Of a stretch of DNA of 64,000 bases, positions 3,650 to 54,823 are shown piece after piece; the first letter of the stretch is position 1, and each line of letters starts with the position of its first letter. A program made the position numbers and the translations under genes. The stretch comes from Schmidtea polychroa (lineage: Eukaryota). The stretch spans positions 101,060,001 through 101,124,000 of the forward strand of contig CM097886.1 of NCBI GenBank assembly GCA_044892525.1. The letters run 5' to 3'. Under the pieces are notes generated by a model, which searched no databases, was not told the origin of the DNA, and saw only the letters and a program-made list of their open reading frames with translations.

Positions 3650-6600
3650 CGGTGCTAGTATAAGAAGCATTGAACATGCATCATACAATCACTTTTTTAG
3701 TTATTGTCTTTCCATCCCGCCTTCACCGAAGCTCATCATCATCACTACTAGTGTTTGAGTTTATTCATTAATCTCCATGTTTAGCTGTAATGTTGCACCA
3801 AATTTATCCCTATTATTTCTAGACCGTTCTCAGTTGATCCGTGCGCATCGGTTCTGGAAGTGAACGAATCAATGCAAATAGACATCCAATTTACCCCTGA
3901 ACTCCCTAAAGATTTCTCAGATGAAGTTATTATTCATTACGAAACTGGTATGAATGATAATAGAAATGACCATGTGATAATGAATTGCTAGGTGAAGACG
4001 TATACATCCGGATTCACGGATCTGGCAAGGAGATTCCAGTGAGAATAGAACGATCGCTTGTGCACATTGAGGAGACCTATGTCGGATTGGCAAATTTAAG
4101 GAAAATTACCTTGCACAATCGCAGTGACGTAATGATTCATTTCTACTGGAGCAATTTCTCGAGTCAAGTTGCTGAAGATCTGGATAGAGAAACATTTTTG
4201 AAGATACTCCAATTGGAAGAGGACGAAGAACAGGAAAGATTTAACTCTGATGATAATTTAGGATTGCTATCATCTGATAAGCTATCAATTGTTACTCGCA
4301 GTTATATCAATAAAAAGAAAGTAGTGCAGTGTCATTATATGGTCAACTGTAACGGATCCTTTTCAGATGTTTAAAGAAAAGAAATCGAGATTTATTGACG
4401 ATATCTTCACCATTGATCCAATTGAAGGTGACATTTGGCCCCACACGAGTCTTGATATCACTGTGGCTTTCAAGCCCACGGAGGCCAGAACTTATCAATC
4501 ATTTGCGTTCTGTGAAATAACCGGAAGAGAAACCAGATTATCCTTAAAGATAACTGGTGTTGGTATTGGGCCGAAAGTAGAATTCTCATTTAAAACCCTT
4601 GATATGGGATACATCTTTATCCAAGCTCACCACTGCTATGAAATCGTTCTCGTCAACAAGGGTGATATAGATGCGTTATTTAAAATCGAAGGAACAGGAT
4701 CTCCAGTTAGTAAATGCTTTACATTCACACCGGATGATGGCCTCATCAGCCCTGGTAGCCACCAAGTCGTCCAAATACAATTCCAAAGCAAAGAATTCCT
4801 TGGTGCCTTCCATCAACCATTCAAAGTGAAAATGGATGGTTGCATGGAACCTTCTATTATCGATTTCAAGTACATTGATGATAATAAAGATGATAATCAC
4901 ATAAAAGTACCATTGCAGAGGAATAGTCATTGGGCCCACATTTTCATTCAGCGTGCAAAAAATCAAGTTTGGTGAGGTATCTGTAGGTATGTATTGTCAA
5001 TATGATTAATATTCAATAAGATTTACCCCTCCTTTTAGGATTTCCAAGTTCCGAAGAGATTAGTTTGCAAAATACATCTCTAGTTCCGTTAGAGTTTCGG
5101 TTGAGAGTGCCAACTGATGGCACAAGTGATCCAATATTAGCAGCAGATTTGACAAACAGCGTGTCACCAAGGGAATACTGTTCCAAATACCAGCCTAGGG
5201 AATTCTCAATAGAACCTTCCGAAGGTGTGTTGGGCTCAATGACGATGTGCAAGATAAAGGTCATTCTCATAGCCAATAGTATAGGGAAATATCACACTGG
5301 ATTGGTTCTTGACGTGATCGGAGTAGGAAATGAGTTATATTCTATTCCCATTACCGCAACGTAATTTCCGATTATATTGATTATTCAATATTGATTAATT
5401 CAGTGCAATCGTTCCGAAGGCTGAATTATCGTGCGATGAATTGGATTTCAGTCGGTCCTTCCTCCATTACCCCTATGAAAAGATCATCAAGATGTTCAAT
5501 AGTTCCACTTTGCCGATCAAATACGAGATTCTCAAGCAGACAGATAAAACAGAGGACTTGTCATATTCCAGTTCCTTGGATACGGTTAATTTATATTTGA
5601 ATTTATTGAGTCCACTAAATAAGGGACTAGATGTGGCGGTAGAGATAATAGTTCATATATATTAGGGATTCTTAGTCTCAGGTTCTATGAAGAGGGTTAA
5701 GCCGAATGCCATCATACTCTTTGTAAAGTCACTAATCGACTCGGTGTAAACTGGCCCAAGCTTTTAACAATCTGCATAGANNNNNNNNNNNNNNNNNNNN
5801 NNNNNNNNNNNNNNNNNNNNNNNNNNNNNNNNNNNNNNNNNNNNNNNNNNNNNNNNNNNNNNNNNNNNNNNNNNNNNNNNNNNNNNNNNNNNNNNNNNNN
5901 NNNNNNNNNNNNNNNNNNNNNNNNNNNNNNNNNNNNNNNNNNNNNNNNNNNNNNNNNNNNNNNNNNNNNNNNNNNNNNNNNNNNNNNNNNNNNNNNNNNN
6001 NNNNNNNNNNNNNNNNNNNNNNNNNNNNNNNNNNNNNNNNNNNNNNNNNNNNNNNNNNNNNNNNNNNNNNNNNNNNGCAGCATTTATTATTTAAAACAAT
6101 AAAATGATAATTTAAGCCTTTTGCTGCAAATAATGTATTTAATGAAAGAATTTTCGACTATACCATAGTCCTTGTCAAGGACTATCGTATAGTCGAAAAT
6201 TCTTTCATTAAATACATTATTTGCAGCAAAAGGCTTAAATTATCATTTTATTGTATTATTATTATTATTATTATTGTTCTTTACCCAACTCGAATTTTAT
6301 TTAATTAATTAATTAATTAACAATTTTTTGTTTTTTTCATTCCGTTGATTTTCGATCATTTTTAAACGGGTACTTATAAATTCATTATCACCATGATCTT
6401 GGTCCGTTTTTTATCATTTCGCATAATTCGTCATTCGGTTTTTTTATACCATTTAGACTGCTCCTAGAGATGAAGTCACATATTGCGATATTTCCCCATT
6501 GCTAGATGTGAGAATTCCCCTCCCTCCCGCCCCCCTTGAATGTGGACTCCATATTTGGTGTCCCCCGTATCTGGAATATAAATAATAGAGACTGATATAT

Positions 6601-10952: not shown

Positions 10953-13900
10953 TTAGTACTGATTATAATTATTAATATATAAATTTATAAATTACTAGTT
11001 GGGCTACCCGGTGATATTTGAAAGATTAAAAAAATATTACAAACGGTGCCTGTAATATTTTTGTAATATTTCTGTACAAAAATCACAAAATCTTTAATCT
11101 ACCTTTACCTCATCTTATTCAGCCATATAATACCCCCATGCAGCCATACAATACACCATTCAGCCATACAATACCCCATAGGGCCATACAATACCCTATA
11201 CAGCCATACAATACCCCATCTAGCCATACAATACACCATACAGCCATACAATACCCCATCTAGCCATACAATACACCATACAGCCATACAATACCCCATA
11301 CAGCCATAAAATACCCTATACAGCCATACAATACCCCATACAGCCATATAATACCCCATCCAGATATACAATATTCATCCAGATATACGAGATATATGTA
11401 CCAAGAGATTGACATAATTAAAAGACAAAAAGAGAAAATGAAAAACATTCTATAATCGTCTAAAAAGCGAATTTTCATGTTATTTTTTCGGAGAAAAATT
11501 TGACATTTTTTCTTATTAGTATTGTAAACAAAACGATTTTTAAGTTCATTCATTTAAGTTCATTCAAATGTCCTGTCATAAGCCTGAAATGATCAATAAT
11601 TCAAATTAACTATGCAAATTCCATTGGTTACATAATATGATTACATCATCACTGATTGCCTGATGCTTGTGTAATACATACATATTTCATGCCACCTCTC
11701 AACAGGCATAAAATATGATCGGAAAGAGGCGTTTGCGCCCTATGCCAAGCTTGTTACCAATATATCAAATGAAAGCAATTAAACAAGACCATATTTACCG
11801 CTACCTACCGGTAACCATTTCTAACTAATGAAAGTTTCTTTTTTCTAACAGTTAAAGAAATATTTCATTTAGACTTCAGAAATCGAGCAGCTGGAGAGCA
11901 ATTTGGCAAATAAGAAGGATACCTCACAAACCTTATCCAAGTCTGCAATGTCAGTCACAAATTCAGAATCACCAGCCTTAGATGAATTGGAACAAACTCC
12001 AGTATCACAAGCAATAGCTAGATATCTAGGACTTGAGCTCACTCCTGAAGGTAAAGCTGCACGTCGTAACAGAGGAATAGCAATTGTAGTCATTGGTAGT
12101 CCCATATCGGGCAAGACAGGTTTGCTAATGATTCTTGATATAGATTTGATAGAATTCTTCATGAAGATACTGCTCAATATCTAGCTGAGAAATATTCCGC
12201 TGCACTTCTAACAGTAGACCAAATAATCATGGAAGCTTTGACAGGTGGCTCGACTCCTGCAGCAAAAAAGGCCAGAGATCTTTGTTTGGATGCTGCTAGA
12301 AGAAGCGAAGTTTTTGATATGGAAGATGGGGGGGAAAAGAAATCCTTATTTGATGGGGCACAAGGTAAGCATCAAGTAATACATGAATTGGGATAATTAT
12401 ATTCCTCCTCTAACTATAATGATAATAATAATAATATCTATTATTTCATTTCATCATTCATAGGAGGTTTGGCAATCTTCAAGCGTTAGTTTATTTTGAT
12501 TTGAGTTCAATTGTCAGGTTGCTTGCGGATAGTTGTTAACGTATTTGCATGGCTGAGAATTATCATTTGCATGACGTTTGGTTTTTCTTTTCATATCTAG
12601 ACGTGATTTTATCATGGTTTCTAATTTTAACATGTTCATGACGCAATGACACGTTCTTTTTATCATATTTGTTACGTTGGCTCATTGGTTACTTGTGAGG
12701 TTTTATTCCTATATTATCAACCTGATCACCATTCCAATTGACATTAGGATCACAATTGTATCAGATCCTTACCATGTTATTTCCCTTTCCCACATCCAGA
12801 TTGAACATTCAGGGAGTTATGTTTACTTTTGGCTAGCCAATTGGATATTTGGGGAGTTATGTTTACCTTTGGCTATTCAATTGGACATTCAGGGAGTTAT
12901 GTTTACCTTTAACTGTGGAATGGAAGGGAATTGGATGGAATTGGATGGAGCGGGATGGGCGGTAATGAAACGGAATGGAGCTGAACGGTGATTACACTGG
13001 TTAAGATTTTCCATTTAGCATAAATCGTTCTTATTTAATTGATGCGACTTGATAATGACAATTTATAACAATGATTTTAGATATGGGGTGAAGAATCTTC
13101 TGAAGATTGACTATAGACTACTCTAGATATCTCTGTACCTAGGAAGGTATTTCATACTAATGGGAGATTTTCCTATACATGGTTATCTATTTTTTATTAA
13201 AAACGTTCAAAGGAATCATGGTTAACCATTGCTTTCGTATCATAAATGCAGTTGAACTTTTCTTCAATGAAGATCAGCAACTGGCGATGTTGGGAACATG
13301 ATTGGTTGGAAGTTTATTTCACCCGCGGGCGAGCTTATCGCTCAAGTGCCCATAATGTTATCCTGCGATAACTGCTTCCTAACATTTATATCTAAAAGTT
13401 CCATTATTCTTTTTTTATCTCTAACATTTTATTTTGCGCACTTTTCTCACACGGCACTGAAAATCAAAATGGCGTCTTGGAATAACCAAAGAATGCAATC
13501 CTTCCATACAACAACCCTAAACGACATCTCATTCAGTTAAAATGCTGCTTAAACGGCTAGCATTAGGATAGTAAGATCATTGTCACTCAATTTATTTATC
13601 AGACATCCTTTCATCCAATTATTTATTTAGACCTACAAAGATCTTCGTGTCTCTTTTACCCTTGTTACGTACTTTGATGTTAAGCCATAGGAGTTATTTG
13701 AAAAGGAAATAAATGGGAAAGTAACTAAGCTCATAAATATAAAAATTCGTTTATGCTCAACAACGAGTAAGATCTTTGTATTAGACTAAGGTGGACTTTT
13801 GTAGTACTATGTTTGTATGATGCGCATCGCTAGCCAATGATATTGGTGTCACAGTATGGAGGATTATGGATCATAGGTTTCCAGGGTAGCTTAGGAAGCT

Positions 13901-16900: not shown

Positions 16901-19900
16901 AGCATTAATTAAATATTGAACAATTAAATGGTAATATGAGCCTTTTGCTGCGAAGTATATATTTGTTTGGGTTCTTAAATTTGAAATTTTTAAATTATTA
17001 AAAACAAATATCGAAAATTAAAATTTGAAAAATGGGTCAGATGTAAATGAAATTGTTAGGGTTGAGTCTGGGCACGTTTGGGGCTTGCTGAGGCGTATAA
17101 ATCAGTAATATATCGATGTTTGTTGATACTCATGAATTTTCGGCACTGCCTTTTTCAAGTGAAAATATCAATAATTAGTAATCAAATATTGATTAAATTA
17201 AGTAATAATTATAAATTGCAACAAATAAAGAATAGGTCAATATAGCTAGTAATTAATAAATAATAAATCACTATAAATAGTAATTAATAAATAATAAGTA
17301 ATAAAAATAGTAATTTTTATTGTATTTTTAATTTTAAAATTTAATATAAAAAGAAGAGAATTTTCAGAGATAAGGACGATAAAACAGATATAGAATCATT
17401 TTCTAGAGTAATTATACAAAGTAATTAGTTATAATAACCAGAGGCAAAATCAGAGGGAAAAATCTCAGGATTTCAGGCAGAACGGAAAGGAAATTATCAG
17501 AATATTGTGTAAAGAGATTAGAAAGCCAAGATATTTTGCAGTTTATTCAAAATAAAATCAAAGTTACCAAAATGTATTAACGCTTGTCATCTTTAAGTTA
17601 CCTCAGGGAAATATTTAAATTAGTAGAAAACCATACTTGCGAAAAAACATAAATTGGCCACCAAGTAGACTAATTATAGACTAATTATTACAGTTTTAAG
17701 CAAGGTTTAAATTATAACTGGGAATAAGCATCAGTTTTCTAGGGGAACTGTTTTGCTTGTATATTCTTTTGAAATAGCAAAGGGTAGTTTATCTAGGAAA
17801 CGTTACTACCAATTTCTGGATAGTAAGCTATCGTGCTAAATTTCGGGCAACCCTCGTCTTTTTCTTATCATTGTTGAGCGGTGCTGTTGATGAATTAGGA
17901 TCCTGCATTCGCCGTCTTTGAAATACCTGAGAACGGTTTGTATAAACGATATCTTTTGAGTTGCAAGTTTTATTGTTATTTTGTCAATCATATTTTTATT
18001 TATATTTCATATAATTAAATTTTCATATCAAATAAAGCGTTGCGTTCTAAAATTTGAACACAGATCTTTGGAGTCAGATCAAAGGAATGTATGTTAGTGG
18101 TACAACCCACTTACGAACTTAACAAAATGATGGGAAAGATCATGGTGAGAATAGGTTCATCAGAATATGTTCAGAAAGGGTAGAAATGCAAGAAAACGTA
18201 CAAAATCGGAAAATAGTTAATTAATTAATTAATTAAAGAAAACCCAAGTTAAGTGAGCAGAGAATAAAATAAATAAACAAAATTTAGGGAAATCATTATC
18301 ATGGTAGAATGAATAATGGGAAACGGGGAAAAGATAATCACAAGGGAGGCGCACCGTGGGGTAATTAATTATTTCTTTCGAAGGAGAAAAATGAAAGGGC
18401 CGCGATGCAAAGATTGTCAAAGGGAGGAGGTGATTATTGTTGAAGAACGTGCTGAACCATAGAGGTTACAGCGAAACTTAGTGAATAGTCAGAATAGGAA
18501 TTTTATTGCCGAATATGAATCAGTAAAGTTACCAAAAAACATCGATATCTTTACTGATTCATAGTCAAATATTTTCTAATAAATAAAATGTCTATTGAAA
18601 AGAAATCAGAGAAAATTGAANNNNNNNNNNNNNNNNNNNNNNNNNNNNNNNNNNNNNNNNNNNNNNNNNNNNNNNNNNNNNNNNNNNNNNNNNNNNNNNN
18701 NNNNNNNNNNNNNNNNNNNNNNNNNNNNNNNNNNNNNNNNNNNNNNNNNNNNNNNNNNNNNNNNNNNNNNNNNNNNNNNNNNNNNNNNNNNNNNNNNNNN
18801 NNNNNNNNNNNNNNNNNNNNNNNNNNNNNNNNNNNNNNNNNNNNNNNNNNNNNNNNNNNNNNNNNNNNNNNNNNNNNNNNNNNNNNNNNNNAAATGATAT
18901 ACAGCATGACCATAGATCATCATATTGATATGATCTTTTTCCAGAATCATGGCCGGCAGATATCCAGAAAATATGGAACAAATTATAATAAAAAATTCGT
19001 CACCAATGCTTGCAGAAATTAACTTCAGCTTCCTCCATGACTCAAACTGTGACCGGTTCTCATTAGATCCTTTAAGTATGACTTTGCAGCCGGAAGAATC
19101 TCAGAAATTGAATCTTTGGGCTTTTCCAAGATTCGCCCAGAAATTTGAGGATGCTATAATCTGTTGTGTGAAAGAAAACCCAGAACCAGTTATCTATAAG
19201 ATTTCCTGTCTGGGAGTGTCACCTTTTGTTGAATTGGACACTAAGGTCATCCATTTCGATAGAGTTCTCCTTCACAGGTATCCTTTCATTTATTGAATAA
19301 AATATCTAGACAAACAATTTGTATTTAAAGGAAAGATATGAAAAGTATTTACTTGCGTAACAGTACCGCTCTACCAGTCCATTGGAGGATTACCGGACTC
19401 GAGAGTCTGGGTGATGAATTCTCATTTGCTCAGGATGGTGGAACAATCGAGCCACTTTCCGAGTTTAAATTGAATGCATATTTCCGTGCAATGAAACCCT
19501 ATAAAGCAAATACGAAAAAGAACATTAGACTGGAAATATCGGACGTAGATGAGCTAGCGGGAATCTTGCAGACAGAAACGGTACAAATACTTGCCGAAGC
19601 ATATGACGTAGCCCTGGATATGAGCTTTCCTAAAGGTTAATAATCCATTATTAATTCCTCATTCCATGAATATCACGACGCCATTCACAATTATGGACCT
19701 AACATTTATATAACATAATTCCTATATAAGAAATATATAAGGATAAATTTCATATCTGTCGTTTTGTACAATGGAAATTTGACAATACTTTCTGTTCAAC
19801 ATTTCTTGCAGAAATTTGGCATATTTTACATTGATTGGTTTGATTTCTATTTTAGATGCATTAAATATTGATCTGATGAAAATTGTGTATTGAGGAATTT

Positions 19901-22900
19901 ATNNNNNNNNNNNNNNNNNNNNNNNNNNNNNNNNNNNNNNNNNNNNNNNNNNNNNNNNNNNNNNNNNNNNNNNNNNNNNNNNNNNNNNNNNNNNNNNNNN
20001 NNNNNNNNNNNNNNNNNNNNNNNNNNNNNNNNNNNNNNNNNNNNNNNNNNNNNNNNNNNNNNNNNNNNNNNNNNNNNNNNNNNNNNNNNNNNNNNNNNNN
20101 NNNNNNNNNNNNNNNNNNNNNNNNNNNNNNNNNNNNNNNNNNNNNNNNNNNNNNNNNNNNNNNNNNNNNNNNNNNNNNNNNNNNNNNNNNNNNNNNNNNN
20201 NNNNNNNCCAAATATATGCTTGACAATAAGGCTATCATTACTCAACTAAATATTATGAATATAAAATTGCATTTAGTAGTGACCACCAATAATGCTATGG
20301 TAGAAACCAAGGGTTGCCTAAGGTGTCAAGATGCAAAGGATGTCAGTATAAATAATTACATTTAAATAATTGCATTTTTAATAGAATGTTTCAATTGTAT
20401 TGCTAATGATATCTAATCATTCCATTGCATTAGGAGCAAATAATGGACTCGACATGGGAACATTAAAGGTCGGTGATGAGACCAAGCAAATAATCACACT
20501 GAAAAATCGAGGCCCATATGAGATTGAATTCAAGTAATGAAATATTATTTACTCTTACTCATCCATAATTATTATGAATATTACTATTATCATTTCAAAT
20601 GGGCCTGTGGGTCTGTTTTTTGATTTTCACTTTTAAATGTGTTGATGGGCATTATTAAAAGTTGCAAGCAGTCTTAGTTATGAAATACTTTCATTGCTTA
20701 CCATTCAGAATACGACAGTAGGAGGACTTTGTCCACTTAATGTTATTGATATGATTTTCATGAGGTCTAAACTTTCTGTGCTTACTTTCTTATGGATTTC
20801 TTTTTACCTTCATCTTTCCTCACATAAAGCCTATCAAAGTAGACCAATAAGGTTGAGTTATGAAAATGTTTCAATATAATACTAGTGAAGCAACTATAAA
20901 GGTTTTACCTAGATTCGAGTTGGACATGCCGGAGAATGGGAAATATAATTTATCTAACCTGTTTACATTATGCCCCAGTCAAGGGAAAATGTCTCCTGGA
21001 GAGAAAGCTATACAAGTCCAAGTATTAAATGAGAATATTATCAATAGAACGGTATATAACTCATGAGTTATAGATAAGTTATTGCGCAAAGGAAGAAGTA
21101 GTGATCAAAGACGAGCAGATATTGAAATGCCATGTAATTGAACCGAATATAGCCGAGCAAGGAGAGGTCATAGCAATAATTCCTATCAGGATCTCTGCCA
21201 GATCATTCTATAGCAAGTATGATTTTCATTTCCTCTTGATTGTGTGATTCAGATTGATATATAATATGATACTTATAATGAAATATTATTATACTAGGTA
21301 CCAAATTACGCCGAAAGCTGATATAAACTTTGGATCTGTCACTGTCCAAACTAGAAAGACCAGACAAATTATCATTGAAAATATTGGGGAATTTGATTTC
21401 AGATTTAACATAAAAAGCGGGAAACCTTTTCAAAACCTTGCAGGACCTCTTCCGAACTCAAACAAGGAAAGTGGTCAAAAAGATTCAGTTGCAATGCAAA
21501 AATCAAAACAGTAAGANNNNNNNNNNNNNNNNNNNNNNNNNNNNNNNNNNNNNNNNNNNNNNNNNNNNNNNNNNNNNNNNNNNNNNNNNNNNNNNNNNNN
21601 NNNNNNNNNNNNNNNNNNNNNNNNNNNNNNNNNNNNNNNNNNNNNNNNNNNNNNNNNNNNNNNNNNNNNNNNNNNNNNNNNNNNAGTGAGCAGAGAGTAA
21701 AATAAATAAACAAAATTTAGGGAAATCATTATCATGACAAAATGAATAATGGGAAACGGGGAAAAGATTATATTATTATTAATAATTATATTATTATAAT
21801 TATTATAATTATTATTATTTATTATTATTATATTATTATTGTTAAGATCAAAAAGAATGGGGTTACTAATCTTAACACTAGACTCCAATAAATAAATAAA
21901 TATAAAATATTTCGTGTGGTTGCGTGTAGTTTATAAATTAGATAAAACAAAGCCAACTTCCTTTTCTTTATCAAAACTTTTATTTATAATTTACAAAAAT
22001 TAGCTTTACAATTGGGATAAAGATAAATACAAGAGACGGATTTATTAATCCTTGCTGTTTGTCGCAGGCTGCAAGAAATCGTTGACTCCTGTGTAGCACA
22101 ACGATCGCAAATTCAGCACAAAGAATAAGATAAGTAAGCGGGATGAATTTGTGTCACCCAGAGAATAAATGCTAAAGTATCGTTCACTATTTTTTTTATT
22201 CGCGAATTAAAATAAAAACGCACAGGATACCAATTTATCCTTTTCAAATAACACAAAATCTTCTTTTAAATTTACCTCTGGAAAATGAATTCGTCTTCCA
22301 AAACAATTGTTTGTTCTTGTCAAGTGCTGAGATATAATTCGATTTGTCAATTTATACTGCTTTCTCTTCTCAACTGATCTGTAAATATCCCTTCACTCGT
22401 CATCTGATTATAATCAGCAAAAAACAACTGCTTATCTTAAACCGTTTTATTTTTTCTAGATTTCTTGCGATTAATTCAAGTGATTCTCAATATTTTCCCG
22501 TTCCTTGTGAACTCGTTAATTTTTCTATTTTGGTACTCAAAACTCTCCAAATTTTGTTCTCAAATTTTGCGTCCTTGGTTCTAATTTTGAACCACTATTT
22601 ATATAAAATTATATATCTTTAATATATTAATAGTAATATTATAAATACTATTTATAGTATAACATTTATAATTACCAAGTATAGATTATTTGTATTTATA
22701 GTATTTTAATTATGTATATTTCTATTATAAGTAATTGTTTTATTCCTTTATTAAACTTAATCTATTTTTAGTAATATTTATTTTAAGACNNNNNNNNNNN
22801 NNNNNNNNNNNNNNNNNNNNNNNNNNNNNNNNNNNNNNNNNNNNNNNNNNNNNNNNNNNNNNNNNNNNNNNNNNNNNNNNNNNNNNNNNNNNNNNNNNNN

Positions 22901-25900
22901 NNNNNNNNNNNNNNNNNNNNNNNNNNNNNNNNNNNNNNNNNNNNNNNNNNNNNNNNNTAAGCCTTTTGCTGCGAATAATTTATTTAATGAAAAAAATTTC
23001 GACTATAAGATAGTCCTTGTCAATCTCCTGGAATTTAGCAATCTCCTTCACGAAAATACATTTCTATCTTTCTTTTATTTCCTTTTTCTTAATTCTCATT
23101 GGTTATAAATATAATATAATATACTTTCATTTTTCTGGATTTTTTTTTTAAAATTTTACTTAAAATTAAAATTAAAATTAAAATAACATAAATATCATTT
23201 AAAATTCAAAATGACAAAAACTAAAACCTTTAAATTTTTTTAAGCTTCTATAATTAGATTCTAGAAGCCTAATAAAATATTTCAAAATATTTTAAAATAA
23301 AGCCTCCAATAACCATTTATATACGCTATTTAAATATTTCAATAAATGTGTCAATTTTAATTTTTAAATCCTATTTTTTGAAAGCATATTTCCTAAAATT
23401 TTCTATATTATTTTAATTATTACTTTTTTTTTAAATTTATTATATTTTTTTTATATATTATCAGATATTCTCAAGGTCAATGACAACAGACCAAATTCAT
23501 GATTTCATTGATTTCTTCTTTAGTGTTGATCTTTAGCTGTCTGTTTATGATGAGAATTGCTTCTTTGAATCTGACATTTTTCTTTTGGATGTTTCCATTA
23601 GCTATGATTTCGATTGAAATATTTTTTCTTTCCTCTATTGGCTGACATTGTTGGAGATGTGTGTTTATCGAGGATGTTCCACCAGGATTTAGATGTTCTT
23701 TAACTCTTTGGCTAAAATTTGTCGAAAATCTTTTTATTAAATATATTATTCGCAGCAAAAGGCTTAAATTATCACTTTATTGTTTTAAATAATAAATGCT
23801 GCTACCANNNNNNNNNNNNNNNNNNNNNNNNNNNNNNNNNNNNNNNNNNNNNNNNNNNNNNNNNNNNNNNNNNNNNNNNNNNNNNNNNNNNNNNNNNNNN
23901 NNNNNNNNNNNNNNNNNNNNNNNNNNNNNNNNNNNNNNNNNNNNNNNNNNNNNNNNNNNNNNNNNNTAATCAGGAATGAAAATGTGCTTGTCGGAGGTAG
24001 TCAAAGTCGTCAACAATTCGGAAACTTTACCCTGTTTCCTGCGAGCGGGCTGGTTGCGACAAGGAATTCAATGATAGTTACAGTGGACTGCATCTCAGAT
24101 AATCCTGGGAAATGTGATGAAGTAATTAGGAACTATTTTATTGAACATAAATGATCATAGTGATAATAATAATAATAATAATAATAAAAATTTGCTTACA
24201 GAATCTTATCATTGAAATAACGGACCGGAACCCAAAGATTGATACCAATGGTGTCCTATATCGTCTATTTGTAGAGGCGTTTGTACCCAGCATTGACTGC
24301 AATAATTTGAGCTCAATATTTGAGGAGCACAGAATATGTGATACAATCACCGTCATTAATAAGGAATTATATCTCGTAACCTATAATTCACAGTGCTATA
24401 TAATATTATTATTTGTTCCTTAGTTATGTTCGGGAGGCATTTATGGGAAATTGGAAAATAGATTCTTATTTACAAATGTTTTGGTTGGAAGCAAAGTTGA
24501 AGCTAGATTCAGACTTGACAATCCGAATAATATTCCATGCGACATAAGCCTATCATTGAAACCTCTTCATGGAGGAAGGAGTTCTATTGGCGGAAGGGGC
24601 TCAGCTTCTGTGGGTGACATATTTGAAGTTGAACCAACAAAAGTCCAAATTGAACCGAGGGGATTTATTTATCTTTCAATTATTTTCAGCCCTCTCGCTA
24701 TGCAGGTTTTTAATGTATATATAAAGGAATAATTCTTTAATTGAATTAGCAATATATCGCAATCTTTGATTGCAACATTGAAGGCCTACCCTCCAATAGC
24801 CCATATAGAAGCAAGGCTTTATCATTTGAGGTTTGTGGAGAAGGATATTTACCGAGGGTTGTAGTAACCAAACCAACTTTACGTAACAAAAAGAGTCAGT
24901 ATCTGTGTTTATTCAAAAAGTCACTATTGGGGAAATTACAATCACAGAATGTAGAGATTTTCAATGACGGATNNNNNNNNNNNNNNNNNNNNNNNNNNNN
25001 NNNNNNNNNNNNNNNNNNNNNNNNNNNNNNNNNNNNNNNNNNNNNNNNNNNNNNNNNNNNNNNNNNNNNNNNNNNNNNNNNNNNNNNNNNNNNNNNNNNN
25101 NNNNNNNNTCTTTTTCACTATTTATTTCGATAGCATTACTATCATCATCATCAGGCTACCTACATTCACTAGGAATGAATAACTATACAATATTGATAAT
25201 TTATAAACAAATTATTAAATCTATAAATTTTTAAATTCTAAATAACAATTTTAAATAATTATTTTCAAAAATAATTTTCCACAAACATTATTTTTCACTT
25301 TTAAAAATTCTTTAAAAAAATATTATTTTAATTAGTTTTTTAATTATGTAACATAACTATTATTAATATACATCAACGCACAAAAACTTAATTAAAAACA
25401 TTCAACACACAAGTATTCACTGCATTCTGCACATTGATTTTAGGATTAAAAGTTCTTATCAATAATGCTTCACATATCACACGCTCAAAACAATTATCAA
25501 AGTTTTTTGATAAGATTTTAAAATCCGACATTCCTATTTCTCTCATACAGACTTTATTGTGATCCTTAATATTGGACACTCCCTTCGGTTGACAGTGTTC
25601 TTGAACTCGAGTATAGAGATGACAGGAAGTCTCTCCTATGTATGTGGCATTACACCCATTACATGTGAATTGATAAACGAGATCCGAACACAATCCAACC
25701 GGCGTTTGAGATTTACTAACAAACATACTACGTACTTTGCACGATTTTGAAACAATTCTATAAATCAATGTACCCAACTGTTTACCAATCTTTCTTTTGA
25801 AATCTTTATATCCTTCCGAATACGGCAATACCATCGTATATTTTGGCTCAAACTTGTTTGTTAGTATTAATACTCACATTCACTACATCATTCGACATAT

Positions 25901-28502: not shown

Positions 28503-28561
<59 letters not shown>

Positions 28562-31500
28562 TAAAATGATAATTTAAGCCTTTTGCTGCAAATAATGTAT
28601 TTAATGAAAGAATTTTCGACTATACGATAGTCCTTGACAATAATAATAATAATAATAATAATATCTGATAAATAGAGTTTTTTGATCGAGGATATTTCGT
28701 TATTACTTAAAAATAGATCTAGCAAACAAAACAAATAGTAATATATAAAAAGATAGAAATCTAATATATAATATATAATGAATAATAAATCTAATATATC
28801 AAGACAAATAATAAAACTAGAAAATAAATTTAACCTTATTATATTGCTTATAATTTGTCAGTAAAATATATAAAATTAAATAAATAAGATATACAATAAA
28901 TATTTTATAAATTTATCATAAATTTTAGTGTAAATTTAGTATTGTACTTTTATAGTATTGTACTGTATAAAATTCAACAAATAGACTTTAATACTTCTAA
29001 ATTTTTCATGTTGGAAACATATTTATTACACATGCTAACATTATTAAAAAACAAACGAACGGACACAGAAGTTATGCGCTAATGGATGATGAGTGACTCA
29101 TTGACATATTACGATTCATAACGTTTTGTATTGTTTATATGTTTGCTAAGTGAATAAGCAGACTTAGATTTGGTTAGACAAATAATAATAATAATTTTGT
29201 ATTGTGGTTAGAACAGAGGTTGTGATAGGGTCCCCTTGTTCTCAATCACAATCAGAAATAAGTTTTATCTGTACCACCAAATCACAACTGTACCGATTTT
29301 CACTGACAAAATAAAAGCTCTCACTTGATATTGATGAGAGACGACCCAAACGGAAACCGCCTAAAGCTGAATGGATTTGATTTAGCCTCTAAATGATTTT
29401 CGGTTTCGTCTAATTGTTTGGTTGCTTTCTTACTAGTTGCAGCTTTTTTATAGGGCTCACCTCTCATCCATCATTTGCAAATAAATAAAATATCGGTTGA
29501 TTGATTTCATATTTTGCACATTAATTTATAAATTTTTAATAATTTCAGTGCGGCTTTCAATTTACTTCCCAATCAGTCGGGGTAACAGAATCATTCTGGC
29601 GATTTGAAATTCCTGAAATTGGAATCAACGTACCTTTCCTCATTGTTGGTCAATGCACAGAACCAAATGTCACTTTCGATAAATCCCATTTCAAATTCCC
29701 CGCTCTTCTCATTGGTCATGAATCTGTGGAAACTGTTGAAATCATCAATTTCGATAACCAGCCATATCATTTCGCCTTCCAAGATATCAGTCGTCACGCT
29801 CCAGGTCACAGCAACAGTTTGAAAATTGAACCGATGCATGGAATTATCCCGAGTTGTGGGAAAGTCTCAATCCATATCGGATTCACAGCAACACTTAATC
29901 AGACCCTTAATTTCAATTTGATATGTCAAGTTGATAAGAAAACTTATCCTTTGTCTGTTAATGTCAAAGCAGAAGGCTATTCGGTCGACAGCACAGTTTG
30001 GTATGAGGATGTCACTGGTCATAGTGTCGAGTTGACTCCATGTTCAAAGAATAGTGATCAGGAGGTCTACAATAATATCGATATAGGTCGTATGGAAGTT
30101 GGTGAACAACAAACGACGTGGATAACATTAGTAAACGATGGAAGATTCAATTACGATTTCAATTGGGATATAAAATGGAAAGATGATCCAAAACTAAACA
30201 GCATGCTCCTGCTTACACCAATTTCTGGCACCGTAATTATAGGAGAGAAGCTAAGATGTGACCTTCGTATAATTGCAAACAGACCGGCTACCTTGCAAAA
30301 GGTTGTTGCTGCCTTAACAATAGGATATGGCAATAGCTATCTCTTGAACATCACTGCAGACATTCATCGGCCGATATTGGAATTTTCATTCTCCAAGCAT
30401 GATTTTGGGCATTGCTTTGTATATCGAGCGGGCATGAAACAGTTGACAACGGAATTGGTCATAACCAATAGAGACTCAAAAGATTCGAACCAGAAACCCA
30501 TCAGTGTTGAATGTCTCACCGAATCAAACGATGTCTTCATGCACAATTTCGAAGTTGCTGTTATTGTTCCTGGCTCATCAGCAACTATTCAAATCACATT
30601 TCTGCCTCGAAAACCAAAAAAATATCAACAATCGCTTCTGTTTGAAATCAACGGTATCTCAAGGCATTCGGTTGATTTAACGGGATATTGCGAGGAATTG
30701 AAACTCGAGGCCATTGACCTTCCCAACCATACAATCAATCTCGGAATGGTGAAAGTAGGAGAAAAGGTTTCCAAAACAGTCACCATTGCCAATACGACCC
30801 ATGTACCTGTGACATCGAAATTGGTATTTTCACCGACATGTGAAGAGCTGCAACAACGAGGAGTGTTCAAAATTACACCTTTAGGTATTTGATTGATATA
30901 TTATAATTTTTGTCAGTAGTATATAATTTATGCCAAATAGAGCTTTTCATTTATTAGTGTGACCTTGACGCTTCCTAGTGTTTTAATTATTTAATGTAAA
31001 TTTTGATTAAATCTTGATATGACATCAATTTATTGTTCATGACTTCTCACCACCAGATTACAGGGGTTTTACTAATATGACGTAACGTCACATATTTCAT
31101 GGCATATTTCGTTCGTATTTCCCTTATAATGGCAGGAGAGAAAAATTCTACAAAATGAAGGCGTGAAAGAATAAATTCTTCGGGTGAATGATAATATAAA
31201 TGTTTATCAGAATGCAAAGGATGTAAAAATGGAGAGCTTCAAACAATTAGCCTTAGGGGGAATAATACCAGGTAAATCAATCAGAAGTGCAATAGATAAT
31301 ATTTCTTTTACAATTCTTTTGAATATTAATACGAAGCCCGAATAAAGTCATAGCCACAAGTGTATATCATTTGATCCTAAAGTGTAATAAATAGAAAGTT
31401 AGGAAGTCAAATAAAGAATTTTTTGTGTAGATATTAGAGACTCAAATCCTTGATCCAAACAGTCCGATCACTCAGATCATGAACCGTTTATTGAGTGGCC

Positions 31501-38485: not shown

Positions 38486-38577
38486 CTATTGATTCCCATT
38501 TTCACTATTGATTCCCTTTTTCACTATTGATTCCTATCTGCATTATTGATTCTCATTTGCACTATTGATTCCCATTT
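38486..38577. repeat. About 20-bp tandem repeat (about 5 copies) downstream of the HYDIN stop
   Basis: Core CTATTGATTCCC repeated with a period of about 20 bp. Confidence 0.85.
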
Positions 38578-38869
38578 AAACAGATATTGACATTATTTCC
38601 ATCAATATTGTTGGGTAACGTGTAGAGGATCTTTCACTTCTTGATTCTTCTCCGACCAAGATTTCCATGTTTTTCGCTTTCACTCTGCAACCACACATAA
38701 CTGTTTTATTCGGACACTAAACACCCGTCACAATCGACGATAGTATTGCGATATAATTATTGGATATCGACAAAAGGTAACCTCTAGAATAAGAACTGCA
38801 AGTGACCCGACGAGTTACTGGGTTCATAGGGTACCGCAGAAGGTGCCGTGCCTCGTTTCGATTGCAAAT

Positions 38870-40422: not shown

Positions 40423-42209
40423 TTATCTGTTAAACTTATCAAGAATCCTTCGAACATTTCTGACAGTTTCCATTACAGTGTATTTTGCTTGCCCCTTTGA
40501 AACACTAAAAGAACCGTGAATAGCCCGCACATTTGTCTTGTCGAGAATCTCTTGGATATTTAATTCGGTTATTCCTCCTCCTAAATAGACGTTGAGAACT
40601 GTATGGAAAGAAGAAATCAACATGAGTCGGAAGGATGAATTAACGTAAATAAACTGAGTTAGCAGGGAAACCCGGAAAAGTCTATATTGGCATCTGGAGA
40701 TGAGTGTCCATTGGTTACGGTGTTAGCAATATTTAATTGATAAATAACTGTATGAGCTTATCGAATGGATTGTTTAATTATGGCGGAGATATGTTGCTGA
40801 TAAGCATTATTCCACCGTGGGTTAAGATGCAAGATTTGGCCGATCTGACCTCATCATCACAAGGTCAAACCAATCAATATGGACAGCGAGGAGTGATAAT
40901 AATTATTCCTAAAGCTGGGACAGCAATATTTCCTGGGATAGTGAACTCACAATGTGAGATCGATCATCATGTATCGTAGCGAGTGTGTCACCCTACCGTC
41001 TGGAACCCCTCCAAATATGCAGTAGCGAGTGTGTGACCCTACCGTCTGGAAGCCCTTCCACATATACAGTAGCGAGTGTGTCACCCTCCCAGGAACTCCT
41101 TCAACATGTACAGTAGCGAGCGTGTCACCCCCAGAACCCCCTCAACATGTACAATAGCGACTGTCACCCCCTCAACATGAACAGTAGCGAGCGAGTCACC
41201 CCCAGAACCCCCTCAACATGTACAGTAGCGAGCGAGTCATCCTCCCCAGGAACCCCCTCAAAATATACAATAGCGACTGTCACCCCCTCAACATGAACAG
41301 TAGCGAGCGAGTCACCCCTCCTTCACATAGACCCACAAACCTACCTGCCATAATCTGAATCCCACTCGATGCCACCTAAATATGTTATCAATATCGATAC
41401 TAAGAACATTCCACCTTCCCGCCCAATTGCCGAATTACATCGGACCCCTCCAATGCGCCGGGGTGACCCCCGCTGGTCAATACACGAAATGTACGGTGGA
41501 AATGTTTGTACCGGTTAGCCAGTTCAATAAGGCTATTGATCGTGATCAGAGGATCCTTGCTAGCGTCAATGGCTAGATAAATAAGGATTAATAATAACAT
41601 CAATATCAACTGTACACCCCTGTGAAATGTAATCGGGTAGCTGCCAATCCGCTCTGTGCCGTAAATTTCATGGTAATATCGAGTCAGACAACAAAAATTT
41701 ACTCATCAACAAGCCCGTCTGGTCGACTGATATCTCGCCGGATCTGAAAACGAAGATAAGTGATTTGTTCACATGACAAGAATGGAAATATTACTCTTGT
41801 AAACACCCAATAACAAATCCATCGGCATATTCTTTCAAATGATCGATGTCACAAAGCATGATGTCCAACTCATCGTTGTCATAAACGAAATCTCCTGATC
41901 GCGGCCTTATTATAACGTAACTTGGAATGCAACAAAGTTCCTTTATTTTCCGACAAAATCCAATAGATGGAGTCAGGCCGTCACAGTGCAATCCATAGCA
42001 TAATTCGAGTCTATCAGCACCTAAATTTTGTATTAATTTATATTTATGATATTAAAATGCAATATCAAAATGCAATCCAGAATGAATTGTCATAAATACC
42101 ATAAATATTAACTTTATAATTATTAATAATTCTGATCATTAGAGAACTAACCACCATTAACAGCTGCTTTAGCGGAGATTAATGAATCAACACAAACTTC
42201 TAACTCCAT
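40423..42209 (-). CDS. CUTC: Copper homeostasis protein CutC homolog
   Basis: Exons 42209-42152 (MELEVCVDSLISAKAAVNGG), 42020-41795 (ADRLELC...GLTPS...IRPRSGDFVY...ADGFVIGCL), 41743-41703, 41653-41618 (YPITFHR), 41572-about 41410 (AID...RVLTSGG...ALEG) and about 40600-40423 (GGGITELNIQEIL...IHGS). The boundaries of the last intron are uncertain. Confidence 0.93.
40973..41325. repeat. GC-richer minisatellite (variable 30-50 bp units, about 9 copies) in the last CUTC intron
   Basis: Core CAGTAGCGAG(T/C)G(T/A)GTCACCCC...CCCCTCAACATG, with a higher-order duplicated block (CAATAGCGACTGTCACCCCCTCAACATGAACAGTAGCGAGCGAGTCACCCC occurs twice). Confidence 0.9.
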
Positions 42210-42915: not shown

Positions 42916-43489
42916 TTAATTATTTTGTGATTTTCCTGATTTTATTTCCTTAAATGGCACATCAGTGGGGCCATATAAATTCCACATTTCTTCAAGACTT
43001 CGTTTCATGGCATAAGCATCTTCTCCGTCCCCATAATACTTGGCTTCAACTTCACTTATAGTAAATCCAAGTGTTTTTTCATACAAATGCAAAGCGGCTC
43101 GATTGCTTCTTCTGACATGAAGAGAGACATATCTAGATTGAAATGTTTCAACCATCGCACGGCAAGCTTGGTTCATTAACTTTTGTGCCAATCCTAGACG
43201 ACGATGGGATTTCTTAACAGCCAACGATGTAATGTGACCATGAGGTATATCGTCTGATTCTTCTTCCATTTTTGATAAAACATAACCAACAATTTCGCCA
43301 TCTGGAGCTTCAGCAACATAAGACAATTGAGGCCAGGAAAGCCCATGATAAAAATAATATTTCATTTGATAATTTTCGGGCAAGCATTGCAAATTGCAAT
43401 CTTGCATATTTAATAAATCACCTGGCTAATGAAAATATGAGTAACATTTAATAAAATATAATAATTACTCTGCAATTTCTAATATTCAT
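42916..43489 (-). CDS. NAA10: N-alpha-acetyltransferase 10 (NatA catalytic subunit, ARD1)
   Basis: Exon 1 is 43489-43469 (MNIRNCR), followed by a 43-nt GT-AG intron (43468-43426). Exon 2 is 43425-42916 ([23 protein letters not shown]...HGHITSLAV...[16 protein letters not shown]...[14 protein letters not shown]). Confidence 0.98.
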
Positions 43490-44379: not shown

Positions 44380-47300
44380 ATTCAATCTTTGTAGGTAAGA
44401 CAAGACAAGGCAACAAAAAGAGATACCCAGAAACAAAATTAAAAATAAAAAGCCATGACGATGCATAAAAGGACCATAACACGGCAAAAAAAATGTAAAA
44501 CATTACAAGGCATGAATGTATAAAAAATAATAAAACAGCTAAGCCATTTACAAGGCATAATAAAAAGAATATATATGTGTACTTTTATACATATCTATAT
44601 GCATAATTATTTATAAATAGATGATAGTTATGAAAATTAGTTTGCATAAGATAATTATTATAATAGTTACCTTTTTATATAATTTTGTTTAATATATGGT
44701 CCATGTATATGTTGTATGCTGCTATCACTGCTGTTTTTATGCATTTTTAGATAGTGCGTCTATTTCTTTATCATTAAGTCCTATTTTTCTTAATGGTTTA
44801 TTGTTTTCATTATCCCATGTACCTAGTGTTCCTACAACTAATGCAGATAATGTACTTTTTGTTTTATTAGTCTTAGCAGTCTCAAGAGCCAGGCTTCTAT
44901 ATTTCTCAAAGTTAGCATCTCTAATTGCTACAAAGTTTTCTAATGTGTCGTAAGGCACTTTTATATCTAATAAATGAATTTTATTATTTGTTTTAGATTT
45001 AATAATTAAGTCGGGTTTTAATGTTGTGGCAACTCCTGGAGGAGCTTTCTCTATATCTACTTGAAATTGTTTAGATTTTAGGTATTCTTGCATTACTTCT
45101 AAAACATGGTTATGTTTATTTCTCCTTGCATTTTGAGTGTGCGTGTAATGGTTAAAGATGTGTGCTTGTGTTTCCCAGTCTATTTTACATAACCTACATA
45201 GTATATTTTGTTTCTCTTTATGTCTATTAATACTATAGTTTAGACTGAGAATATTATTTCTTGCTTTAACCAAAAAGTAGTACTGATTGTCTGTTAATTC
45301 ATGCTTTTTAATCAGGTATGCTGATTGGTTATTACTTCCTATTGTCTTGGCGATATGTCTTTGGTGTATCATCGAGTACCATTTATCAGCATACCACTTA
45401 CTAGTTAATGTATGTAGTATTGAGGATGTGTCCTAGAGGTTGTTATAATTTATATAGTTTATTGTATTATCATAACTAATTTCCAAAGCGAAACAACCAT
45501 CAATAATTACAATTCTACTAATAATGTTAAATTTTTCACGTAATCGTTTATTGGAATCCCTAAGTTTTGAAAAAAGGCAAAAAGATCGACTCCCTTAATG
45601 TCAAAGTTAATCCATTTTAGTTCTTTATTAAGGTTTATCTCCTTATTGTGCGATCGTTGTTTTACCGCATCAATAAGTTCCCCTATTATAAAATCCCTCA
45701 TTTTAATGTCGCTGGAGTTGAATAGTTTTATAAAATGAGTAATACTCTGTATTAAGTATTCATCAATTGTAGGTGTAATTCCTAACCCTCCCAAAGAGCA
45801 ATGTGCATAGATGAAGAAGTCATTTAGATTTTGGTGTATATCTCCTAATTCATTTTTTATTATTTTTTTTACTTTTTGGTCGAATCCTAGTTGTTTTTCT
45901 CTATTTTGGACAATTTTATTTCTATTACTATCTAAAATTATATGATTAATTGTAAAAGTACGAAAAGGGAATATAAATCTCGAATGAATGAATTATATGC
46001 GTCAATTTTTTGCGCTGGATGTAGGTCTGATGAAAAAATCTTTTGTGTTTCATCCAGTGCTTTATCTACTATTTTTTCTATGCTGTGTTTCGCTTTTCGC
46101 CAAAGCCTACTCCTAGATATCTATATATATTGTCTTTATTTATGATTGGTATGGGTTCATTATATATTCTTAATGGGGTGTCAGTATGATTTTTATGATG
46201 TTGAAAATAACCGCACTTATTGGGTTTAAACTTAAGACCTGCCTTATCTGCAAGTTCTGTTATTTTACTTAGCTTGTCTACAATGGTGTTTCTCGACTCT
46301 GATTTCTCGACTCAATATCATCAGCATACGCCAATATGCTGACATTGTAATTATTAATGTGTAATGGGTAATTTATTAGTATGTCCTTAAGTATAAAGTT
46401 GATGGAAAGACAAAATAATGTCATTGACATTGGGCATCCTTGTCTGACCCCATTATTTATTTTAATGTTTTCAGTTAGTTGACCTTCACAGTCATAGTAT
46501 GTATTGCATTCTATATATAGATTTTTAAGTATACCTAATGTGTTATCATTCATCCCTAAGTCAGTCAATGTTTGCCAAATCAACTTGTGTGGCACACTGC
46601 CACACGCGACTGCTAGATCTAACCATATAATATTAATATCTTTATCTATGCGCACTGCTCTTTGTTTTATTAGTGTCAGAACAGTGTTATGTTCAGAACA
46701 TCCATCTGGGATCCTTATAGCTTTTTGGTTTCTACTTATAAAATTTTCTACTTTTATCCACTCTAATAATCTTTCATTAATTATTGCTGAAAAAATCCTA
46801 TATGAGGTATCTAGAATTGCTAATGTTCTCCATGATGAGACATCATGACTAATATTTGCCTTACCTGGTTTTATAATTAATTTAGTTTTAAAAGTTTTCC
46901 AGGTAATGGGCGTAGAATTATTATATATAATATTATTAAAAAGAGCGCAGAACAAAATGAATTGTGGATCTAAATGTTCCCAGTCCCTATAAGTCAATTT
47001 ATCCCTTCCTGGGGCTGATCCATTATTTAATTTTTTAAAATTATAACTATATCATTAATTGATATAATTTTTAATATAGTATTTTCAATATTTATTTTGT
47101 TATTACTAATACCTGGACAATTAGCAATTCTAACCTCATTACTAAAATTACTGATGATTTTTTCCTTTGGAGGAGGTTTTAATTTAATAGCATTGTTAAA
47201 AATTTGATTAATAGTTAGTTTTGGTTTTTTAATATAATTATTTCTTAGTTCATAAGTCAAAAGCCTAAGTTTAATACTATCTCTTATATCAGGGCTTTTC

Positions 47301-50130: not shown

Positions 50131-50382
50131 GGTTTTCATGGTTTTCGTAGGTTATGAGGTTTGGATTATATTTAAACAAATTATTTTGATTTTTAATATT
50201 TTTTTCAAGAATGTATTTTTCATTTTTATTTTTGTAATTTCTATTTATAAAATTATTTAAAGCATTGGTATTAAAAATTTCGGGATTTTCTATTTCTATA
50301 TTATCTTTGGTAAAAATATCATTATTAAAGTTAAATCCATCTTTAAATCCATCTTTAAATTTCTCAGCAAAAGTCTTGAAAC

Positions 50383-50446
<64 letters not shown>

Positions 50447-50531
50447 ATCAAAAGGATTTATAAAATAATAAGTTTTTAAATTTTTCACAAAAACCGCCAC
50501 TCCAATTATTAAAACAACAAGATATCTAACT

Positions 50532-50542
50532 CTCCCCTTCTT
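50532..50542 (-). other. Polypurine tract of the gypsy element
   Basis: AAGAAGGGGAG lies immediately 5' of the 3' LTR on the minus strand. Confidence 0.85.
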
Positions 50543-51906
50543 AAGACTTTTTCCACTTATTCAGCCACTCAATTCTCCTTTCTTTCGTTCCTTCTTGTGA
50601 ATGTAGTTCGACTCGATGAGATGATAGAAATCTGACGATTTTATATGGCCATCGTATTGCATACCATCTTTGTGCCTGTTCTGCGGCTCTTTACGTACGA
50701 GTACCTCCTCCTCCACCTCGAAAACACGAGTGCCCCTCTTTGTCTTCTCCATAGCTCTCATAGTGTCTGCGGCTTTACTCGAGTTAAATCTCGCGTCTTC
50801 GATTCTTTCGCTTCTTGATATCTCGACTTGTTTCAGGTTAGAGTGTAGGTTGACACTCCGTCCATAAATTATCTCAAATGGTGATAAACCTGTAGCACTT
50901 TGTCGACTGCTATTTATAGTGAACTTTATTCTGGGTAGAAGTTCGTGCCAGTTTCTCTCTTTACATCCACCTGCCAATGTTGCTGTAATAAGATCTCTTA
51001 TCGTTTGTATGGCTGGTTCGGCTAAACCATTTGATTGGTGCTGGTAAGGTGAGCTGAATTCCTGTTTCAATTCCAAGTTTCTGTAGCTTCTGTCTTATGA
51101 AATTCCCTTCGAAATTTCGGCCTCTATCTGTTAAAATGGTCTTCGGTTTTCCAAATCGATAGATCCAACTATTAAGTATTGTTTTGAAAATTGTCCCTTC
51201 GTCTTGCTTTGTGATTGCAGTTAAAGAAATCAGTTTGCTAAAACTGTCCACTATTACTACCATATATTTATATCTTTATCGCATCCAGATGTTGCAGCGT
51301 ATAATGGTTCGGCGATTTTGGCATAGTCGTTGATGAATCTTCTATAGTAGTTCGTTAATCCGAGAAACGATCTCAATTGTTTTGAACATTTTGATACTTC
51401 TGCTTTCTCAATCTCTTCCACTTGCTTCCTGTTTGTCTGTATACCCTTCTCGTTAACTGTGTGACCAAGGAAACAAAAATCTGTTTTATTGAATTTGCAT
51501 TTTTCTGGATTTATCTTCAGTCCTGCCATTTGAATTCTTCTGAATATTTCCCTTAATAGCTCATCGTGGTCTTTTTGAATTTTATCATATACCAAGATAT
51601 CATCTAGATAAACTACTACTCCCTTGAATAGCATTCCTTCTAGCACTGTCTGCATCAGTCTCTGGAATGTCGCAGGGGCTGTTGCTAAGCCAAACGGTAG
51701 TCTATTGAAGCAAAACTGTCCTTCTCTTGTACTGAATGCAGTCATTTCTTGAATTTCTAGAGCCAACTCCACTTGATAATACGCTTGACCTAAATCGATT
51801 AACGAAAATATTTTTTCATTCGCGAGACAGTCTAGTAAGAATTTGGTGTTAGGCATCAGAAATGACTCTTTTTCTGTTATGGAATTCAATCCACGATAAT
51901 CTACAC

Positions 51907-54660: not shown

Positions 54661-54671
54661 CGTGGTCGCCA
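54661..54671 (-). other. Primer-binding site of the gypsy element (tRNA-Arg type)
   Basis: TGGCGACCACG is complementary to a tRNA 3' end CGUGGUCGCCA, as in tRNA-Arg(UCG) as I recall it. It overlaps the last LTR base. Confidence 0.7.
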
Positions 54672-54823
54672 GTTAAATTCATCTTTAAATCCATCTTTAA
54701 ATTTCTCAGCAAAAGTCTTGAAACCAACAATATATATATTTGATCAAACAAAATAATAAGTTCTTAATTTTTTCACAAAAACCGCCACTCCAATTATTAA
54801 AACAACAAGATATCTAACTATTA

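Follow-up and report, generated by a model that had tools for sequence, protein, structure and literature searches.

The window analysed here is a stretch of 64,000 nucleotides from Schmidtea polychroa (contig CM097886.1, positions 101,060,001 to 101,124,000). It contains at 6096-6254 a 159-bp palindrome that raises the question of whether such a unit is copied from site to site as a small mobile element or is assembled anew at each insertion. The initial annotation had read the region as two hammerhead-like ribozymes, head to head on opposite strands of a branched palindrome and sharing one 7-bp core, and had proposed that a fold-back event made this form, which was then itself copied elsewhere. 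Sequence comparison in the window bears out the palindrome, whose arms are complementary across 79 bp around an unpaired central T (T6175), with a sole mismatched pair, 6164/6186, where loop II of the left arm has a private C at 6164. The single core serving both strands is likewise present, as 6172-6178 is TTGTCAA when read from the plus strand and TTGACAA from the minus strand. The unit exceeds 159 bp, because the left arm runs on into the tail of its parent element, visible at 6077-6095; the minus strand of this tail leads into the first codons of that element's ORF. The locus is composed as follows.

6077..6095, minus strand: inner portion of the tail extension that is visible on the left, longer arm; matches the tails of other copies
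6096..6174, minus strand: left arm, a pLTR 3' end (5' portion of the RNA) with a truncated minimal hammerhead
6172..6178, no strand assigned: shared junction TTG(T/A)CAA, the near-palindromic U3-A9 hammerhead core of the parent
6176..6254, plus strand: right arm, a second, tail-less copy of the same pLTR end, which stops at the upstream 3' boundary common to tail-less copies
6255..6275, plus strand: (ATT)n target microsatellite flank; most copies of the family sit in (TAA)n tracts

The junction at 6172..6178 is likely the microhomology at which two cDNAs would have been joined, under the mechanism proposed below. Exon-bearing HYDIN frames flank the locus (Pfam HYDIN Ig-like domains; for a later frame, PDB Hydin at E 9e-94), and the palindrome likely lies within a HYDIN intron. 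This gene covers about 2100-38400 (+) of the window in many exons, and its introns appear also to house a solo arm and two copies of Penelope-like elements (PLEs). Elsewhere the window holds a Gypsy-like LTR retrotransposon remnant (50329-54819), with terminal direct repeats (D19, D20) of 97-99% identity and with protease and RT frames on the minus strand that are split into several frames, and a degenerate non-LTR retrotransposon (44737-49827, minus strand), whose RT frame (Pfam E 1e-19) is followed downstream by a frame where CCHC and a PD..D-like motif were recognized by eye. It also holds a single-frame GNAT acetyltransferase (42916-43425, minus strand), which we take to resemble the N-terminal acetyltransferase NAA10, minisatellites at 11094-11413 (20-bp unit), 12800-12919 (40), 38487-38596 (19) and 40951-41318 (about 30-47), and an 87-bp direct repeat (18252-18338 and 21685-21771) of 94% identity, 3.4 kb apart.

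The ribozyme content of the palindrome is less than had been claimed for it. The motif of the parent element reads GAGA-UUGACAA-G-GACUAU(CGU)AUAGUC-GAA-AAUU-C-UUUC, with U3-A8, one extra base between 9 and 10.1, G10.1-C11.1, a 6-bp helix II, palindromic 15.2-16.2 (AAUU) and a 4-bp helix I. Judged by these letters it fits the published minimal type I hammerhead of the U3-A8 type, and it is like the U3-A8 minimal type I hammerhead described from Schistosoma Cercyon by Cervera and De la Pena (2014; PMC4209133). Our own descriptor of the minimal type I form (core 3-9 with C3-G8 or U3-A8, helix II with G10.1-C11.1, GAAA, UH, and helix I) matches copies L137, L092 and L030 and the window at 23023(-). 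With helix I set to at least 4 bp it has 0 matches in 20 shuffled windows, and with helix I ignored it has 0.65 per shuffled window. The palindrome has its other arm where the GAGA strand of helix I would stand, which leaves a helix I of 0 bp for the motifs at 6172(+) and 6178(-); for the solo copy, at 28640(-), it is 1 bp. An Rfam scan of the window found no hammerhead family at E up to 1, and a candidate type III hammerhead on the opposite strand was dropped after inspection by eye, having no core. The RNA of 6090-6260 folds at -112.9 kcal/mol (z -28; 0/200 shuffles as good) as one unbranched hairpin, not as the branched structure first suggested, while single arms folded alone give nothing past stem II (z -0.8 to 0.9). 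Because the palindrome lacks helix I and a single perfect hairpin dominates the fold of its RNA, the two motifs are ribozyme remnants and not two complete ribozymes. Dual motifs on opposite strands are described in PMC4209133 at distances of 100-700 bp, whereas here they have zero spacing, share their core and are incomplete, helix I having lost its 5' strand; the same paper reports minimal hammerheads to be weak in cleavage even as dimers. Among older copies of the family, the cleavage-site region is variable.

Both arms of the palindrome are pLTR ends, and the Penelope-like element they come from is of the RT/GIY-YIG kind and, to judge by an intact ORF, active. One copy, L137, retains an intact ORF of 856 aa, with RVT_1 at 389-579 (E 2e-14) and, at the C terminus, a GIY-YIG domain at 756-790 (E 1e-5), which begins MLLPSNHHFIL inside the tail of ~40 bp. 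In other copies the arm extends into the 3' UTR, the GIY-YIG frame (IVYCITCNVCNEIYIG) and RT, and within the window it recurs at 22958-23023 and 23721-23807, flanking an element body. The parent has the makeup of an endonuclease-bearing (EN+) PLE: a single ORF with RT and C-terminal GIY-YIG endonuclease, as in L137; pLTRs in direct or inverted arrangement, with 5' truncation; a tail of 30-40 bp at one end, overlapping the ORF start; and a target site duplication (TSD) together with an AT-rich or microsatellite target. A young subfamily with the diagnostic letters of the palindrome accounts for 1,503 exact matches to core plus stem II outside palindromes, and many parent matches form divergent pairs 0.3-4 kb apart, an arrangement that corresponds to the inverted pLTRs reported for PLEs (PMC8557442, PMC3846280). 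Further pieces of the family in the window are the following.

22958..23807, minus strand: older-subfamily copy of the parent Penelope-like element, core at 23023, holding an inverted tail piece, the end of the GIY-YIG ORF, the 3' UTR/pLTR and a minimal hammerhead with the GGAGA strand of helix I intact
28558..28640, minus strand: solo arm without a tail, set between (TAA)n tracts on both sides and beginning with TTGTCAA
61414..61482, plus strand: further degenerate arm of the same family, with a core variant and a deletion in stem II

A diverged (82%) arm-related piece at 16920-16964 (minus strand), adjoined by a tail-like stretch, belongs to an older or sister PLE family. Head-to-head insertions of the parent with arms of about 2 kb, each carrying most of the RT-EN frame, were seen at L133, L135 and L136 (C1, about 8.20, 35.97 and 35.76 Mb); these are kilobase palindromes from the same process as the short ones.

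The palindrome is one of many. In the genome of 781 Mb, where most matches lie on four large contigs (C1-C4), the best 40 of 394 candidates from a DNA search are full palindromes without exception (40/40), of 98-100% identity, on C1-C4. Junctions of the CTTG(T/A)CAAG type, which the initial annotation had wished to see counted genome-wide, are found in their exact 21-nt form at 82 loci, against 0 for a control pattern. A broader pattern, allowing 0-30 nt between two stem II halves, gives 386 loci with a short head-to-head junction. Among the first 50 of these, counted by eye, the exact core junction is the commonest class in a broad spectrum of head-to-head joints, with 8 cases; TTGTCAA-GGAGA-TTGACAA comes next with 6, and the remaining joints are mostly unique, with inserted or duplicated bits frequent.

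Perfect hairpins are known trouble spots in sequencing, and an origin of the palindrome in faulty assembly was raised for that reason. The 40 of 40 scored palindromic copies and the 82 exact junction loci argue that it is no such artefact, the loci having distinct flanks, subfamily-specific arms, one-sided tails and TSDs, and we regard the chance of an artefact as next to nil. The palindrome had also been thought to abut an N gap. The genome record of this locus contains no N, and therefore an N beside the palindrome is not an assembly gap. One 49-nt contig spans the palindrome centre in X5 and one in X6, each with fewer than 31 letters a side and not locus-specific; these contigs are not taken as proof of the palindrome.

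For closer analysis we used 67 palindromes, 28 from the DNA search and 39 more from the DNA and exact-junction searches combined. This set is not random, consisting of the 40 best matches to the window copy and the first-listed loci on C1 and C2, and it favours young copies and C1/C2. L132 was excluded, having a different junction, while L095 and L104 were included despite extra inserted bases.

The ends of these copies are unequal in a regular way. A tail is present on exactly one arm in 66 of the 67 palindromes; none has two tails, and one rearranged locus has none. Other short inverted insertions, judged by eye, have one tail in 17/17 cases, and among long inverted pairs a single tail is seen in 12 of 14, two tails in none and no tail in the remaining 2. 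Solo insertions carry a tail in 5 of 12 cases. Of the 30 loci whose flanks are not pure microsatellite, 9 show a clear TSD, 11-15 bp in length, the other 37 of the 67 sitting in pure (TAA)n; at the unique-flank loci L109 and L113 a TSD is absent.

The opposite, 5' end is sharp. Extending the core and stem II pattern by about 9 upstream bases reduces its matches from 1,503 to 868, and 16 more bases reduce them only to 792; 179 matches begin at GGAGA. Thirty GGAGA-start loci represent 29 insertions, 17 with a short inverted arm and 12 solo, and in none was the 5' end seen to pass AGGAGA, 6 nt ahead of the hammerhead core. From these DNA break points the RNA would start at the A of AGGAGA, a C/A start site. 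A splice or trans-splice origin of this end, considered for its acceptor-like CAG/GAGA, is unsupported in the short insertions, the 29 sharing no upstream exon or leader.

A second Penelope-like family is present in the window at 25154-25873 (minus strand), with a GIY-YIG end (Pfam E 7e-6) followed by a pLTR whose canonical CTGATGA hammerhead-like motif, a C3-G8 version at the same position, has 543 exact matches in the genome. In this family no 5' break was found within 10 nt of the core and no adjacent inverted arm in 30 copies (0/30), and the short head-to-head form is not general to all PLE families in the genome. At L010, L019, L100, L222 and L241, the family of the palindrome has a second insertion, which shares the (TAA)n tract of the first or adjoins the end of a different PLE; this suggests that the same targets are used repeatedly.

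Since the central base is unpaired, each palindrome can be oriented by its tail and the base read. With the tail placed 3', this base is A in 32 palindromes and T in 34 (p 0.90), and the A:T ratio is 24:23 in the young subfamily and 7:11 in the old one. This balance bears on a scheme in which a single cDNA snaps back at its TTG/CAA end and serves as its own template. That would yield both the exact core junction and arms that are identical, but the tail should then be found only on the first-made arm (A phase only), and 34 of 66 palindromes are in T phase. Phase flipping after insertion would have to be at saturation even in near-identical young copies, and the stop of the second arm at the other fixed boundary would be left unexplained. 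We consider such a snap-back extremely improbable.

Subfamily markers place the palindromes with their sources. An old-subfamily marker is present in both arms at 18 of the 67 palindromes, and the same markers are common among 87 copies in parent context. The exact junction thus occurs in both subfamilies and in both phases, which implies at least four origins. In long inverted pairs, with one of 15 loci unusable for the test, the arms share source markers in 13 of 14, and 0 of 100,000 permutations did as well. At the palindrome L110, the tailed arm is of the old subfamily and the tail-less arm of the young one; this could reflect a pair of RNA templates, conversion, or an insertion that went into an older copy. 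Arm-specific variants that young palindromes have in common, such as position 7 in L129 and L130, do not exceed chance coincidence by a rough estimate, in a test of shared lineage that has low power, the young copies being nearly invariant.

Here the model of the initial annotation, in which one or a few fold-back events made a palindromic, MITE-like unit that was itself mobilised, can be weighed. Part of it stands: the arms are the ribozyme-bearing end of a retroelement, joined at its near-palindromic core. What lacks support is the single fold-back followed by MITE-like copying. The near identity of all 40 scored copies, the one exact junction common to 82 loci and the existence of TTGTCAA-type solos (2 clean among 30 examined) would agree with such a history. 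Against it, the young parent is equally homogeneous. The junction arose in each centre phase and in young as well as old subfamilies, whose markers the two arms carry; it is absent from 42 of the first 50 short joints, and many other joints fall within 30 nt. TSDs are long and variable, and no arm-specific variant marks a clade (at low power). The equal terminal inverted repeats and short fixed TSD of a MITE are not what is seen, the ends being unequal by the tail and the TSD 11-15 bp, nor is there the fixed junction, fixed phase and own lineage of descent from one master, although power is low for a minor subset of secondary copies. We hold this model to be very unlikely. Given the tail on one arm, the random centre base, the two parent subfamilies with matching arms, the 8 of 50 short junctions and the TSDs, the copies look re-made at each insertion and not copied as a MITE. 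There is likewise only a slim chance that some young palindromes are daughters of others: the dead-core hairpin would be transcribed from either strand, its arms would offer the Penelope protein start sites to recognise, and it would spread by retro-mobilisation as a 200-bp palindrome, its centre switching between T and A in the manner of a hairpin-ended replicon.

The solo copy at 28558-28640 had been taken as a sign that the palindrome itself was copied. It is indeed identical to the right arm, matching the reverse complement of 6172-6254 at 83 of 83 positions. Non-palindromic TTGTCAA-type copies of this sort do exist, as had been asked, but they are rare, with 34 genome-wide. The 30 examined by eye comprise 8 point variants whose parent context is intact, a majority of complex inverted junctions among the rest, and just 2 clean solos flanked by microsatellite. 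The copy in the window is one of these 2, and it therefore does not show that the palindrome was copied. This copy is either a separate short insertion or a palindrome minus one arm: microhomology with the flank may have supplied its T at the junction, or the T may be left from a palindrome that lost an arm, and neither origin needs retrotransposition of a palindrome.

Taken together, the palindrome is probably a minimal insertion of an EN-bearing Penelope-like retroelement, made anew at each site from two short cDNAs joined head to head. Frangieh 2024 (PMC11167929) reports that a PLE protein, a predicted dimer, cuts and extends both strands and prefers ATT, that reverse transcription starts at two internal sites bounding the tail, and that HHR cleavage is dispensable for insertion. 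In the S. polychroa family, both strands of the target would be cut with a stagger, a step consistent with the TSDs and (TAA)n targets observed. Each cut strand would then prime at one of the two RT start sites, on the upstream pLTR/ORF-start copy of the RNA; one site per strand is suggested by the presence of one arm with a tail and one without, together with the two start sites found in vitro. Two cDNAs of about 90 and 130 nt would extend to the 5' end of the RNA, both ending ...CCTTGTCAATCTCCT-3', and would anneal through whatever microhomology is available, most commonly TTGTCAA with TTGTCAA, in 6 pairs and a T:T mismatch. Repair or replication would fix T or A at random, giving the 32:34 phase. 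Both motifs would be catalytically dead in cis, and the copy would be a dead-end scar in the HYDIN intron.

A different route to the same structure has been put forward for head-to-head PLE junctions by Arkhipova 2013 (PMC3846280), in the form of self-priming, with "EN-mediated resolution" from Craig 2021 (PMC8557442): antisense RNA, or a hairpin intermediate tailed at both ends, folds back at the core, and the endonuclease resolves one end at the tail boundary and the other at the tail-less boundary, the choice of end being random. It accounts for identical arms (13 of 14 concordant) and for palindromic junctions, and random resolution could also yield 32:34. It sits less easily with the solos, which share the same two 3' boundaries and the AGGAGA 5' end without any hairpin, with the many junctions that have inserted or duplicated bits, typical for end joining of two DNA ends, with the arms of L110 from two subfamilies, and with the two RT start sites on sense RNA, which explain the tail in vitro (PMC11167929). 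We judge self-priming unlikely. Some observations also weigh on the preferred explanation, two separately primed cDNAs. Some secondary copying among palindromes may have taken place, the concordance of arms could reflect gene conversion between them, the arms of L110 contradict a strict rule of one RNA, L109 and L113 are without a TSD, and the second PLE family is without the short form.

In LINE-1 twin priming, both target ends prime cDNA on the RNA, the junction shows microhomology and a TSD is made; the two cDNAs cover different parts of the RNA, and the outcome is an inversion without duplication. In the palindromes, by contrast, the two cDNAs would cover the same part of the RNA, and the outcome is a duplication and a palindrome.

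Published insertions of EN+ PLEs (PMC3846280, PMC8557442) are described with the same head-to-head inverted copy, a palindrome at the junction and a tail at one end over the first ORF codons, as well as a 5'-truncated inverted pLTR, a tail of 30-40 bp, a TSD of around 10 bp and microsatellite targets. As compared with those descriptions, both arms here are reduced to 85-125 nt at the 5' end of the RNA with no ORF body between them, the hundreds of loci permit statistics, and the unpaired centre base marks strand origin; those papers favour self-priming or EN resolution, whereas the data here favour two primed cDNAs. PAc (Poseidon of Anolis; PMC11167929) shares the ATT preference, the extension on both strands and the two tail-bounding RT start sites. 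That report, in the text covered here, does not trace the inverted arrangement back to the two start sites; a single site for each strand, and joining by microhomology, are proposals of the present analysis. MITEs, by their general features, and the non-LTR retrozymes of bioRxiv 10.64898/2026.07.22.740005, as far as described there, are also short, non-coding, inverted-repeat or HHR-bearing and present in many copies, but the palindromes differ from them: they lack a short TSD of fixed length, their two ends are unequal, their HHRs form no tandem array, and nothing points to descent from a single master. In place of the head-to-tail tandem repeats with complete type I HHRs of a non-LTR retrozyme, there are two head-to-head arms with incomplete motifs. 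A literature search of openly accessible texts, supplements aside, found no description of ORF-less core-joined palindromes or of PLE twin priming, and the supplements of PMC4209133, PMC11167929 and PMC3846280 may contain such copies.

The architecture of the insertion is already known in print, and the centre-base test is a useful addition. For the way in which PLEs acquire inverted ends and one-sided tails, the published proposals are self-priming on antisense RNA (PMC3846280) and endonuclease resolution (PMC8557442), and one in vitro study gives two RT start sites (PMC11167929). The S. polychroa family offers a natural test set of hundreds of minimal products, with a one-tail rule, source-matched arms and a sharp 5' end. 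Its palindromic core supplies, in the unpaired base, a built-in strand marker, whose 32:34 distribution favours two separately primed cDNAs resolved through a heteroduplex. The impact on host biology is likely minor, amounting to scattered 80-bp hairpins, with the copy in the window in a HYDIN intron. For annotators of transposable elements there is a caution, in that such "MITEs" can be by-products of a retroelement.
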